Source: a virus. From it: a stretch of DNA of 64,000 nt. The DNA lies in the IMG/VR virus record IMGVR_UViG_3300000553_000014, positions 24,303 through 88,302 of that record. The stretch is one strand, 5' to 3'. The notes beneath the pieces were generated by a model. It was not told where the DNA came from and did not search any database. It saw only the letters and a program-made list of their open reading frames with translations. Both the position numbers and the translations under genes were made by a program. Within the stretch, counting starts at the first letter, position 1. The number at the start of each line of letters is the position of its first letter. Below are positions 35,022-38,128 of this stretch, piece after piece.

Positions 35022-35116
35022 TACGTACCAGGAATTTTTAACATTTTTTATATTATCTTAATAGTTATCCACTTAAATTTTTCTGTTCATTTTTTGAGTA
35101 AAAATTCTGGTACGTA
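35022..35116 (-). repeat. CGYACCAG inverted-arm unit 1 (95 bp, reverse orientation)
   Basis: tacgtaccag...ctggtacgta. The spacer aligns to units 5 and 7 when reverse-complemented. Confidence 0.8.
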
Positions 35117-35184
35117 AATTTGAAAAGCTAAAAAATAAGCCCGAAATTTTACAATTCCGAACTTATTTTTAGGCTCATAATTGA

Positions 35185-35604
35185 TTATAAATCAGCACAA
35201 AAAGGACCAATACCTCTCTTAATTGACTCAGGTGTTGTTAATGTTCTTCCGCACCTGCAACAATGTCCATGATGATAAAAAACAAGTTTACTATGAGGTT
35301 TATTATTGTTTAAATAATGTTCAATAATAAATTTAATAACTTCAACAGAAGTTGGAGTTTTTGTTAATTTTTTTGATTGAACAAACTTAAATTCTGTTTT
35401 TGCTTCGTTTGTATATAAATTCCCTATAAAATTATAACTTTCATAAGCATAACAAACAGAAACAAAAAACATATTTTTATTAGTTTTGCATAAATTTATT
35501 TTATATGTGAAACGATTTTTTGTCTCTTCACTTTCAACAGTGAAATATGCACGACCTCCCAAAATAAACTCTTTTTGGTTTTCAATAACAATATTATCTT
35601 GCAT
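35185..35604 (-). CDS. DUF6011 domain protein
   Basis: FTVES...RFTYK and GHCCRCGRTLTTPESIKRGIGPFC. Confidence 0.85.
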   Translation of the reverse strand: MQDNIVIENQKEFILGGRAYFTVESEETKNRFTYKINLCKTNKNMFFVSVCYAYESYNFIGNLYTNEAKTEFKFVQSKKLTKTPTSVEVIKFIIEHYLNNNKPHSKLVFYHHGHCCRCGRTLTTPESIKRGIGPFCADL

Positions 35605-35615
35605 AAATAAATTTT

Positions 35616-35738
35616 TTAATATTTGTAAATATTTCCACGAAATGCTTGACGTATGGAAGCAAAAAAATCTTGAATTATTTGTTCTTCTGTTTTTGCTTTT
35701 TTAATTTCTTTTGAATTTTTTATTGCTTTTGTTTTCAT
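35616..35738 (-). CDS. 40-aa hypothetical peptide (not in ORF track)
   Basis: MKTKAIKNSKEIKKAKTEEQIIQDFFASIRQAFRGNIYKY, between promoter copy 14 and the DUF6011 gene. Confidence 0.5.
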   Translation of the reverse strand: MKTKAIKNSKEIKKAKTEEQIIQDFFASIRQAFRGNIYKY

Positions 35739-35769
35739 ATACAAAAATTATTTGATTATTCATATTATA

Positions 35770-35799
35770 TATATCCATAATTTTTGCGAAATATGAGAT
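35770..35799 (-). promoter_or_regulatory. phage promoter motif copy 14 (minus strand)
   Basis: ATCTCA-N16-TGGATATA on the - strand, oriented with the only minus-strand genes of the left arm. Confidence 0.75.
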
Positions 35800-35810
35800 A
35801 TTTGGAAAAT

Positions 35811-36013
35811 AACGCACCAGTAAATATAACATATATAATGTATATAAAAATTTTGTAGGTTATTACTCTTATATATTAAAAATATATTATATGTATTTAC
35901 TGGTGCGTTTATATTACGTACCAGTAAATATAGCATATATAATGTGTATATAAATTTTGTAGGTTATTACTCTTATATATTAAAAATATACTATATGTAT
36001 TTACTGGTACGTA
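35811..36013 (+). repeat. CGYACCAG inverted-arm units 2 and 3 (99 bp each, tandem near-identical copies)
   Basis: 35811-35909 and 35915-36013, period 104 bp. Confidence 0.9.
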
Positions 36014-36068
36014 TTAGTTAATTTTATCCTGAAATTGTATAAATATTGGTATTTTGGTATTATAAGTA

Positions 36069-36226
36069 AACGTACCAGCATATATAGATATTTAATATTA
36101 ACGTACCAGTAAAATATCTCCAAAATTATTATATATGGTATTTATCAAGGTATTTACCTTATTATAATAATATATTATATAATTTACTGGTACGTTTATT
36201 ATTATACTATTGATTACTGGTACGTT
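36069..36226. repeat. nested CGTACCAG arms: unit 4 (36100-36196) plus outer half-sites
   Basis: aacgtaccag at 36069 and 36100, ctggtacgtt at 36187 and 36217. Confidence 0.85.
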
Positions 36227-36249
36227 TGGTTTGAACTTATTTTTCGATT

Positions 36250-36279
36250 TGCCCATTTTTTAGAAAAATTATGGATATA
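36250..36279 (+). promoter_or_regulatory. phage promoter motif copy 15
   Basis: TGCCCA-N16-TGGATATA. Confidence 0.8.
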
Positions 36280-36340
36280 TATATTATGAGACACAACAAA
36301 ATTATATAATAATAAAAATAAATAAAAATAATTTCGATTT

Positions 36341-36370
36341 TGCTCATTATTTAAGAATTTCGTGGATATA
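36341..36370 (+). promoter_or_regulatory. phage promoter motif copy 16 (tandem with copy 15)
   Basis: TGCTCA-N16-TGGATATA. Confidence 0.8.
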
Positions 36371-36438
36371 TATAATATAATGTATCACACATTAAAAATA
36401 ATCAAATAAATTTTATAACAAATCAAATTTTAATTCAA

Positions 36439-37131
36439 ATGTCAAAAGCAAAAAATCAAAATGCTCAAGGAGCTGTTGAAAACGACAACACAAACGTTAA
36501 TGAAGTTGAAGGAACAACTACAACAACCGAAACTATGGTTGAAGGTTTAGAAGATGCAAACACAGATGAACTTGCTCCTCTACCAACAAATGCAAATGCT
36601 CCAAAATATTCTTACAGAAAATGGTTGGAAGAAAATGAACCTACTTTTATTGAAGGTCAAGTATCAAAAAAATTCGACAAAGCTCGTGAGCCAAAAGTTC
36701 AAGCTGGTTTGAAAGTTATTTCTGAGCTAATGGGTGGCTCAATTGCTCCTTTAATCCTTTTATTAGGGAAATGGTGGGAAGTTAAACCTGCACGTGCTGA
36801 AATAAAGAAAATGATTGACGCCGAAGCAGAAAAAAATGGCAGACCTACTGACCACTACTTACAAGTTGATTTACGTGAAAATGTTGACAAGTTAGCAACA
36901 ATCCAAAATGCTACTGACAGACTTCGTTACGCAATCACTTATTTCAAACCAAGAGGTGGTTTATCTTCAAAAGAAATCTTCAAATCTGTTATGATTCGTG
37001 GCCAAGTTTACAGTGTAAGTATTACAAAATTGACCGAAATTAAAGCAGAATTTCCAAATGTTGAAGACAAAGAAAAATTATTCGATGCAGTTATTGCATG
37101 TTCAACATTAGTAGGTGTTGACGAATTATAA
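36439..37131 (+). CDS. hypothetical protein, paralog of 27880..28467, probably highly expressed
   Basis: Tandem promoters and its own terminator. Shares the MSK/GLE/Thr-rich N-terminus and a VMIRGQVYSV...KEKL C-terminus. Confidence 0.85.
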   Translation: MSKAKNQNAQGAVENDNTNVNEVEGTTTTTETMVEGLEDANTDELAPLPTNANAPKYSYRKWLEENEPTFIEGQVSKKFDKAREPKVQAGLKVISELMGGSIAPLILLLGKWWEVKPARAEIKKMIDAEAEKNGRPTDHYLQVDLRENVDKLATIQNATDRLRYAITYFKPRGGLSSKEIFKSVMIRGQVYSVSITKLTEIKAEFPNVEDKEKLFDAVIACSTLVGVDEL

Positions 37132-37164
37132 AAAGAAATCTTCCTTTAAAATTTTGTCTATCTG

Positions 37165-37199
37165 AAAGTTCCAATGCGAAAGTGTTGGAACTTTTTTTT
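37165..37199 (+). terminator. intrinsic terminator
   Basis: aaagttccaatgc-GAAA-gtgttggaacttt followed by a T run. Confidence 0.85.
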
Positions 37200-37212
37200 G
37201 TATATATAACTT

Positions 37213-37484
37213 TACGTACCAGTAAATAATGATATTTTCAAGATATATAAAATTGAGTGGACAATACTCAAGATACTAAAGAAAATTCAATAATTTACTG
37301 GTGCGTTTTGTTATATAGATATTTAATATAATTTGTAATAATAATATATAAAACTAATCGTACCTGTAATATATTGATATAGAAGTAATCGCACCAGAAA
37401 ATATTATGAAAAAATGACTCATATAATAAAAGTAAGCATATATTCAAGATAAAAGAATAAAAAGAGATAATTTGCTGGTGCGTT
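37213..37484 (+). repeat. CGYACCAG units 5 (37213-37307) and 6 (37388-37484) with half-site at 37357
   Basis: Inverted arms. 37213-37397 is duplicated at 37857-38041. Confidence 0.9.
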
Positions 37485-37495
37485 AATTATGCTTT

Positions 37496-37525
37496 TGCTC
37501 ACATTTCCCAAAAATTATGGATATA
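37496..37525 (+). promoter_or_regulatory. phage promoter motif copy 17
   Basis: TGCTCA-N16-TGGATATA. Confidence 0.8.
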
Positions 37526-37570
37526 TATATTATGAGACAACAAATTTATAAATAAATTAATACAAATCAA

Positions 37571-37828
37571 ATGTTAACAAAATTAAGTGCTGGTGTTACT
37601 TTTAAAAGTAAACATCTTAAAAATACAAGAATTGAAGTTCTTAATATTGATATTTTGAACAATATTTTGAAGGTCAAAATTAATAAAAAGCTTGAATCTC
37701 ATTTATCAGATTGGAATGAAGAATGGAATTTGCAACATACTTTATGGGTATTTGAAGATGGTACCTATGAGCTTGAAAATAATTTCGAAGGCTTTCCACC
37801 AACTTATTATAGTAAAATTGCACATTAA
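37571..37828 (+). CDS. hypothetical protein (single-gene cassette)
   Basis: Own promoter and terminator hairpin (37814-37843), flanked by repeats. Confidence 0.75.
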   Translation: MLTKLSAGVTFKSKHLKNTRIEVLNIDILNNILKVKINKKLESHLSDWNEEWNLQHTLWVFEDGTYELENNFEGFPPTYYSKIAH

Positions 37829-37856
37829 TTGTGCAATTTTTTTATATATTAAACAT

Positions 37857-38128
37857 TACGCACCAGCAAATAATGATATTTTCAAGATATATAAAATTGA
37901 GTGGACAATACTCAAGATACTAAAGAAAATTCAATAATTTACTGGTGCGTTTTGTTATATAGATATTTAATATAATTTGTAATAATAATACATAAAACTA
38001 ATCGTACCTGTAATATATTGATATAGAAGTAATCGCACCAGGTATAAAGTGTATATTTTGAGTTATATGATAAAAACAAGCATATACTCAAGGAAAAAAA
38101 ATAAAAAGATATAATTTTCTGGTACGTT
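37857..38128 (+). repeat. CGYACCAG units 7 (37857-37951) and 8 (38032-38128) with half-site at 38001
   Basis: Inverted arms. Near-identical to 37213-37397 over 185 bp. Confidence 0.9.

Follow-up and report, generated by a model that had tools for sequence, protein, structure and literature searches.

The subject of this report is a 64,000-nucleotide stretch of DNA, here called the window, that covers positions 24,303 to 88,302 of the IMG/VR virus record IMGVR_UViG_3300000553_000014. The whole record comprises 88,302 bp, with a completeness of 36% as estimated by CheckV, and the GC content of the phage is about 22%. The window contains an array of eight DNA units, which we refer to as u1 to u8, distributed around a gene for a protein of 230 amino acids (p230). 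Each unit is bounded by two inverted copies of the word CGYACCWG, here called arms, and encloses a 16-bp motif, CAAGRYATATGYCTTG, that is located off the centre of the unit. Four additional copies of the arm, here called half-sites, are placed next to units. The array, with its half-sites and central gene, is located at the following positions of the window:

35022 to 35116, minus strand: u1, in the inverted register, with arms at 35024 and 35107 and the motif CTTAATAGTTATCCAC at 35057 to 35072, at a distance of 37 bp from the centre of the left arm; flanked by two convergent terminators, no adjacent promoter
35811 to 35909, plus strand: u2, with arms at 35813 and 35900 and a weak central motif at 35856 to 35871; adjoins a minus-strand promoter
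35915 to 36013, plus strand: u3, a near copy of u2 with a mirrored C-to-T change in the arms
36071 to 36078, plus strand: half-site, 31 bp upstream of the left arm of u4
36100 to 36196, plus strand: u4, with arms at 36102 and 36187, the central motif CAAGGTATTTACCTTA at 36146 to 36161 and outer half-sites on both flanks; located upstream of both promoters of the 230-amino-acid gene
36217 to 36224, minus strand: half-site, 30 bp downstream of the right arm of u4
36439 to 37131, plus strand: gene for the 230-amino-acid protein, at the centre of the array; the sole gene of the locus common to all relatives
37213 to 37307, plus strand: u5, A-type; starts 20 bp past the terminator of the 230-amino-acid gene
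37359 to 37366, plus strand: half-site, 31 bp upstream of u6
37388 to 37484, plus strand: u6, B-type, with the motif TAAGCATATATTCAAG at 37433 to 37448; a promoter motif begins 33 bp downstream
37857 to 37951, plus strand: u7, A-type; within a 185-bp duplicate of 37213 to 37397
38003 to 38010, plus strand: half-site, 31 bp upstream of u8
38032 to 38128, plus strand: u8, B-type, with the motif CAAGCATATACTCAAG at 38077 to 38092; a promoter motif begins 42 bp downstream

The word CGYACCWG was matched exactly 21 times in the window, in all cases between positions 35024 and 38126, as compared to 0.11 matches expected by chance, and none of 100 shuffled sequences reached this number. The same 21 matches were the only ones in the whole 88,302-bp record, in which the reversed pattern, used as a control, was not found at all. 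A first-pass annotation of the window had counted 20 copies of CGYACC(A/T)G within 3.1 kb and had not noticed the word elsewhere. The clustering was thereby confirmed and extended to the rest of the record, and the count was corrected by one copy, CGCACCTG, located at 35250 to 35257 on the plus strand. This lone copy lies inside a minus-strand gene with a DUF6011 domain, 136 bp from u1, and may have arisen by chance or represent an isolated half-site. Sixteen of the 21 words form the inverted arm pairs of u1 to u8, with core-to-core lengths of 91, 95, 95, 93, 91, 93, 91, and 93 bp, in that order; with 2 bp added per side, these are the lengths of 95 to 99 bp previously given for the eight units. 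The half-sites at 36071(+), 36217(−), 37359(+), and 38003(+) were found at 31, 30, 31, and 31 bp from the neighbouring arm, as had also been described. Finally, a TAYTCAAG-like core previously placed at a fixed position, with u1 inverted, proved to be the right half of the 16-bp motif.

A pattern scan of viral contigs returned 32 stretches, among which L030 was the one true relative, its 11 words being arranged as in the window, and an initial scan with a protein pattern yielded no matches. Related loci were fetched via alignments of homologues of the 230-amino-acid protein, which gave 7 viral and 9 metagenome loci, 16 in total. Units delimited by inverted pairs of words at a spacing of about 84 bp were identified around the gene in 15 of these 16 loci, which shows that the arm spacing is conserved among relatives; in the most divergent locus, L047, with a protein identity of 33%, no units were found within 5 to 6 kb. 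The genomes with units contained 7 to 12 copies, all at one spot. The arm word was specific to the lineage, with CGYACCWG, CACACCWG, CGCACCGG, GTCCACCGG, or CACACCAT as variants of 8 to 12 bp, and CACC was the sole part that was invariant across lineages. A strict filter retained 62 units of 89 to 95 bp, 56 of which measured 90 to 93 bp, from genomes with GC contents of 22% to 48%. In a complete relative of 208.5 kb (G001, with an end overlap of 127 bp), all 14 copies of the 9-mer arm GCGCACCGG were located within 4 kb, and this stretch sits at the convergence of two gene arms, as does the array in the window.

A covariance model, R1, was built from 55 oriented units, and its matches were confined to the array locus in all 5 records searched. 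In u1 the model scored 51.2 bits on the minus strand versus 31.1 bits on the plus strand, and u2 scored 61.0 bits on the plus strand. No unit was detected with R1 in the cultured phages PAU, pT24, MA9V-1, PTm1, and MaF61, where the only match covered 58 nucleotides with an E-value of 0.15. The commonest arm word gave no arrays and 8 single hits in the genomes of 185,579 bacterial and archaeal species; these hits are at about the level that we estimate for chance, and 2 of them score weakly with the model. The window stretch itself was present in 14 sequencing runs, all of which were DNA from freshwater metagenomes. Our literature searches found no description of the element, and the supplementary lists of a survey of MITEs (miniature inverted-repeat transposable elements) from IMG/VR (PMC11602168) might include these contigs.

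Comparisons of 13 orthologous pairs of units showed that the arms were about 100% identical and the interiors 40% to 90% identical, a pattern that indicates purifying selection on the arms. In L046 and L055, which share 78% DNA identity, every unit was found at the orthologous place, and the order of A-type unit, half-site, B-type unit, and promoter was preserved between distant relatives.

The geometry of the units was equally regular across all loci. The arm centres were 82 to 87 bp apart in 84 of the 94 pairs of convergent neighbours; among neighbouring arms in the same orientation, 21 of 34 pairs were spaced by 30 to 32 bp, 17 of them by exactly 31 bp, and 10 of the 43 divergent pairs were spaced by 32 bp. 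The motif CAAGRYATATGYCTTG was common to all lineages, and wherever a good match was unique, in 31 of 31 units, its centre was displaced by 4.5 to 5.5 bp from the centre of the unit, 23 times toward the plus side and 8 times toward the minus side. Its distances to the two arm centres are accordingly about 47 bp and about 37 bp. Within the window, the corresponding distances were 46 to 48 bp and 37 to 40 bp, with the distance from the left arm being 46 to 48 bp in u2 to u8 and 37 bp in u1, by which u1 is recognized as inverted. On the long side of the motif, at a distance of about 15 bp, a weaker TAT-rich patch was seen. With a helical repeat of 10.5 bp, the spacings correspond to 8 turns between the arms, 3 turns to a half-site, and 4.5 and 3.5 turns from the motif to the two arms, so that the arms occupy the same face of the helix and the middle motif the opposite one. 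Both of the observed registers preserve the helical phase.

The 230-amino-acid protein was present in all 16 related loci and had 84 homologues. A profile search of 1.84 billion representative sequences identified 78 representative clusters, all with proteins of 70 to 307 amino acids. The protein had no sequence match in Pfam, PHROG, or PDB and no Atlas lead, a Pfam scan of all members of the family at E-values of up to 1 yielded nothing beyond scattered noise, and no homologues were found in 50,697 phage records. No known domain was recognized in the protein or in 30 neighbouring proteins. The product of the gene at 27874 to 28467 was considered as a paralogue, for which BLAST gave no support: with tblastn, the 230-amino-acid gene matched nothing but itself in the genome of the phage, and the pairwise BLASTP E-value was 26. 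One homologue, P0014, was filed under a metagenome-assembled genome of Candidatus Dojkabacteria; it is located on a 3.5-kb contig that is probably a mis-binned phage contig and not a clue to the host.

The plus arm of the window encodes nucleotide and replication functions (ribonucleotide reductase, dCMP deaminase/DHH fusion, NAD ligase, helicase), and the minus arm, from 39.3 kb, contains the portal and polymerase genes. The fusion is a single open reading frame of 480 amino acids at 13974 to 15416 (+), with an N-terminal dCMP-deaminase-like and a C-terminal DHH-phosphoesterase-like part. The capsid protein was distantly related, with an identity of 23% to 33%, to those of Sphingomonas phage PAU, of Tenacibaculum, Chryseobacterium, and Flavobacterium jumbo phages, and of Lak megaphages. 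The array occupies the end of the plus arm, in a group of small genes of which only the DUF6011 gene had a family match. Three minus-strand genes (40223 to 42247, 39863 to 40201, and 39370 to 39858) adjoin the array; they had no Pfam or PHROG match and were kept in most of the related loci, among them L047, where no units were found. The other features identified around the units are:

34979 to 35001, plus strand: intrinsic terminator that ends 23 bp before the arm of u1
35131 to 35170, minus strand: intrinsic terminator of the DUF6011 gene, which abuts u1 from the other side
35185 to 35604, minus strand: cassette gene for a protein of 139 amino acids with a DUF6011 domain (Pfam E-value 8.9e-15; phrog_20259)
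37164 to 37195, plus strand: intrinsic terminator of the 230-amino-acid gene, from the terminator scan
37571 to 37828, plus strand: cassette gene for a protein of 85 amino acids, without homologue in the related loci
37814 to 37840, plus strand: intrinsic terminator of the 85-amino-acid cassette gene, from the terminator scan

A phage-specific, promoter-like motif consisting of a TGCTCAT-like element, about 17 variable positions, and TGGATATAWAT was matched 12 times in the 88 kb, mostly ahead of genes. In the window, it was located at 11517, 29111, 33000, 36272, 36363, 37518, 38171, and 38932 on the plus strand and at 35777 on the minus strand. Five copies were placed beside units, and at least 4 copies elsewhere in the record had no unit. 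The motif fits neither the sigma-70 nor the Bacteroidota consensus, as we take these to be. The relatives carry versions of their own, such as CGGATATATAT in L042, with 10 matches as compared to 1.4 expected. In G001, the word GTATTCGG/CCGAATAC occurred 16 times across the 208.5-kb genome, twice within units, and may be part of the promoter of G001 or another dispersed signal.

Each of the small cassette genes was found to have its own promoter motif and its own intrinsic terminator, and units were located at nearly every cassette boundary around the 230-amino-acid gene. Within a boundary, a gene is followed by its terminator, by an A-type unit about 20 bp further on, by a half-site with a B-type unit, by a promoter, and by the next gene. 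The terminators ended 19 to 23 bp ahead of u1, u5, and u7; according to the terminator scan the arms were not part of any intrinsic terminator, and the terminators beside the units are separate structures. Among the 27 units to which a promoter could be assigned, 23 had the polarity of the nearest promoter pointing outward.

The explanation that we favour, and in which we place moderate confidence, is that each unit is a double-stranded DNA module of about 92 bp that is read by putative proteins at the boundaries between cassettes, and that serves to insulate and co-regulate these cassettes. A protein that binds the arms would bridge the two arms of a unit, a second factor would bend the DNA at the middle motif and thereby close a tight loop or U-turn, and the extra arm copies would extend the complex cooperatively. 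The A-type unit could then act as a roadblock behind the terminator and the next unit as an upstream control site for the following promoter, such that the complexes would both insulate and co-regulate the cassettes. Two separate readers are predicted from the sequence pattern, one for the lineage-specific arms and one for the universal middle motif. The 230-amino-acid protein is the obvious candidate reader, since the array always surrounds its gene.

The first-pass annotation had proposed a dedicated protein-DNA architecture that matched no described element, and had listed a replication origin, a packaging or DNA-entry signal, looping or activator sites, and recombination sites as possible functions. 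The dedicated architecture is also what we favour, with looping or regulatory sites as the best fit from that list and recombination sites retained as a rival. An origin, a packaging signal, or a DNA-entry signal fits less well, because the units are placed one or two per intergenic space over 3 to 8.5 kb, at cassette boundaries, and because their polarity follows that of the neighbouring promoter.

Several observations weigh against the explanation that the units are protein-read insulators or regulators. The 230-amino-acid protein has no DNA-binding domain that could be recognized with Pfam, PHROG, or PDB, and the type of arm does not track the divergence of this protein: L056, at 40% identity, has the arm word of the window, and L043, at 51% identity, does not. 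No bending protein of the HU/IHF type was encoded in the five records searched for protein families (the complete 208.5-kb genome and four partial ones), so a bending factor would be either supplied by the host or novel, and in-phase A-tracts, with an A/T phasing of 10 to 11 bp, were not seen in the aligned units. The distance from unit to promoter ranges from 33 to 82 bp, so that the geometry is not that of a rigidly placed activator; furthermore, u1 has no adjacent promoter, and four copies of the promoter motif operate without units. Lastly, the mirrored arm change between the recent copies u2 and u3 hints at pairing or conversion between arms, and a polarity that follows transcription would also suit a role at the RNA level.

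The latter two points lead to the first of the rival explanations, which is that the units function as folded single strands, either as hairpin RNAs of about 92 nucleotides or as DNA hairpins or cruciforms with a 13-bp arm stem, recognized by a structure-specific factor. All eight units in the window folded with a terminal stem that corresponds to the arms (z-scores of −2.4 to −6.7), and in this fold the 13-bp stem encloses about 65 nucleotides. The arm pairs were 91.5% paired, with changes on both sides across lineages in 10 of the 13 pairs, and the arm change in u2 versus u3 is a mirrored substitution of C-G by T-A. However, the covariation of the arms was observed only between lineages. Within one genome all arms share a single word while the interiors diverge, which points to reading of a specific sequence and implies that sequence, not only pairing, is selected. 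The 825 arm cells comprised 707 Watson-Crick pairs, 21 G-T, 18 A-C, and 79 other, unpairable combinations, and the similar numbers of G-T and A-C mismatches show that there is no bias for G-U wobble pairs. The degenerate position of CACC-N-G in the middle of the stem was unpaired in 16 of the 55 units.

Nor did the interiors show a shared or significant fold: the central palindrome was paired in only 61% of the cells, and 12 interiors that were folded alone had z-scores of +1.2 to −3.0, with 1 of 12 below −3 and no fold in common. The half-sites at 31 bp and the 10-bp asymmetry are left unexplained by pairing. The A-type units begin about 20 bp past strong terminators without a promoter motif of their own. 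A scan of positions 34500 to 38700 against Rfam at E-values of up to 10 gave 12 matches, none of which came near the gathering threshold (24.9 versus 81 bits for the best). Taken together, the evidence favours protein-read double-stranded DNA over RNA, and we regard the folded strand as an unlikely explanation.

The genes located between the units were not conserved among the relatives, unlike the 230-amino-acid gene. The gene for the 85-amino-acid protein was bracketed by 185-bp repeats, each composed of a unit, a half-site, and an arm; the segment at 37213 to 37397 and its duplicate, which includes u7, differ at 3 positions. Metagenome contigs in four DNA runs broke at these repeats. One contig in run X5 (record 31, depth 3.7, corresponding to window positions 37734 to 38041) extended from the 85-amino-acid gene through the u7-type repeat into the interior of u6, and carried the T of the first repeat copy at 37991. 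This is a weak hint of a recombinant, tandem, or circular form of the cassette in one sample. A comparison of L045 and L053 revealed a 776-bp indel that starts right after the central motif of a unit and a 1.1-kb indel that ends about 25 bp from an arm. At 5654 to 5713, L053 retains no part of a unit except its left arm and middle motif, after which it joins the sequence that is located 776 bp further on in L045 (6654 to 7489). As a by-product, the units would mark points at which cassettes are gained, lost, and duplicated.

These data are also what would be expected if the units were sites for site-specific recombination, with a role like that of integron attC sites, through which small cassettes enter and leave. 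The variable genes around a constant one, the repeats on both sides of the 85-amino-acid gene, the record 31 contig, and the indels at or near units all speak for this explanation. However, no tyrosine recombinase (PF00589) and no serine recombinase (PF00239) was found in any of the five records, and the breakpoints were not at one fixed position. The cassettes bring promoters and terminators of their own, and the layout was constant between distant relatives. Joints across the arms, as would be left by the inversion or excision that the first-pass annotation had suggested looking for, were not seen in four metagenome DNA runs. We find it doubtful that the units are recombination sites in this sense. 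A variant that is similarly improbable in our view is a cassette platform without integrase, in which a novel protein, perhaps the 230-amino-acid protein, would pair the arms across the bent motif, insulate the cassettes, and guide or catalyse their exchange, as a counterpart of the integron made from unrelated parts.

A further possibility, to which we give an equally small chance, is that the array as a whole is a single site for genome maintenance, for example an origin or terminus with iteron-like sites, a centromere, or a packaging start, to which the 230-amino-acid protein binds. There is one such locus per genome, and the array always encloses the same conserved gene, in the way that the rep and par genes of plasmids are flanked by their sites. 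The array also adjoins the convergence of two gene arms in both the window and the complete relative, and its phased layout of several sites with a central motif is like that of P1 parS and lambda cosB. Against this, the units are spread out, not packed, and they take their polarity from local promoters. No partition nucleoside triphosphatase, initiator, or terminase was recognized nearby with Pfam or PHROG, and GC skew provided no independent mark of an origin in the record of the window or in the complete relative.

The weakest of the rivals holds that the units are non-autonomous mobile elements of the MITE, repetitive extragenic palindromic doublet (REPIN), or Correia type that have multiplied in intergenic DNA, as would suit their terminal inverted repeats, their length of about 100 bp, their intergenic location after terminators, and their central motif, which resembles a protein site; MITEs are described as occurring, rarely, in viral contigs (PMC11602168). 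This is very improbable, since the flanks extend the inverted repeat and do not form a direct duplication of the target (pairing of column 2 with 102 and of column 3 with 101 was found in 38 and 44 of the 55 units, respectively, and in the window a TA...TA reading is possible only for u1 and u3), copies in the same genome have diverged except for the arms and motifs, all copies are in one locus at orthologous positions with no precise empty site, the indels are cassette-sized and imprecise, no Y1 transposase of the REP-associated tyrosine transposase (RAYT) family (PF01797) was found in the five records, including the complete genome, and arrays of the commonest arm word are absent from the bacterial and archaeal genomes. 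Because neither a recombinase nor a Y1 transposase was found, the breakpoints are not fixed, and the layout has been kept, we rank recombination sites, mobile elements, and an origin, centromere, or packaging site as rivals to the protein-read module at cassette boundaries.

Resemblances to several known sequences were considered and dropped after reading of the sequences, and none of them explains the geometry: the E. coli Chi site, which shares CTGGTG, the IHF consensus, NrdR boxes, sigma-54 and Bacteroidota promoter motifs, and, for GGTGCGCATA of L044 alone, the XerC arm of dif.

With regard to composite sites, P1 parS and lambda cosB (R3-I1-R2), both with IHF, have protein sites on the two sides of a central bending site, in strict helical phase and over about 50 to 90 bp. 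They are single-copy sites for partition and packaging, however, whereas the units are present in 7 to 12 copies at cassette boundaries; the five records contain no IHF/HU gene, and the middle motif does not correspond to the IHF consensus as we know it. The attC sites of integrons are likewise imperfect inverted repeats, of about 60 to 140 bp, with conserved ends, a variable middle, and an asymmetry that gives polarity; they bound small cassettes, and each platform has its own homogeneous type. The units differ from them in that there is no integrase, the cassettes have promoters and terminators, up to two units with half-sites are present per boundary, and the arm core is CACC and not GTTRRRY, which we take to be the core of attC. 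In mycobacteriophage L5, the stoperators are many sites for one protein that are placed in short intergenic spaces and serve as transcription-oriented roadblocks or regulators, but these are single 13-bp sites distributed genome-wide, whereas the units are composite 92-bp modules at one locus.

Correia/NEMIS elements and bacterial MITEs are described as intergenic sequences of about 100 to 155 bp with terminal inverted repeats and a long predicted hairpin, and some of them, including Correia elements, contain an internal IHF site (PMC2229807). The units differ by the lack of target duplication, of dispersal, of near-identical copies, and of copies in hosts.

Another point of comparison is provided by the promoter-early stem-loop (PeSL) cassettes of T4-type phages, in which the repeat is described as an early promoter combined with a terminator stem-loop (PMC2839356). 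As in the array, repeated intergenic regulatory elements are said to lie on either side of small orphan genes within a variable region, a separate promoter and terminator serve every gene, the repeats mark the gain, loss, and duplication of cassettes, and no dedicated recombinase is known according to that account (PMC2839356). In contrast to the PeSL repeat, the unit stands as a third element between a terminator and a promoter that are distinct from it; its arms are separated by 8 turns, it has half-sites and a motif fixed off the centre, and it is confined to the surroundings of one conserved gene. When the locus was examined for shuffling of the PeSL type, the non-conserved genes between units, the 185-bp duplication, the one recombinant contig, and the indels near units were found, and no circles or joints were seen.

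The element belongs to an uncultured clade of giant phages from freshwater, and none of the 5 cultured relatives tested carries it. What is unusual is the combination of a rigid helical phasing, a range of GC contents from 22% to 48%, the confinement to one locus, and the tie to an orphan family of 78 clusters. The arm words of the lineages together with the universal middle motif provide a sequence signature by which such phages can be found and classified in metagenomes. Gene regulation and genome architecture are almost entirely unstudied in the giant phages of environmental Bacteroidota-type lineages. If the units are indeed insulators or regulators, they would amount to a novel strategy by which phages organize accessory genes into independent expression cassettes, and if they guide the exchange of cassettes, they would explain the turnover of the variable regions in such phages.

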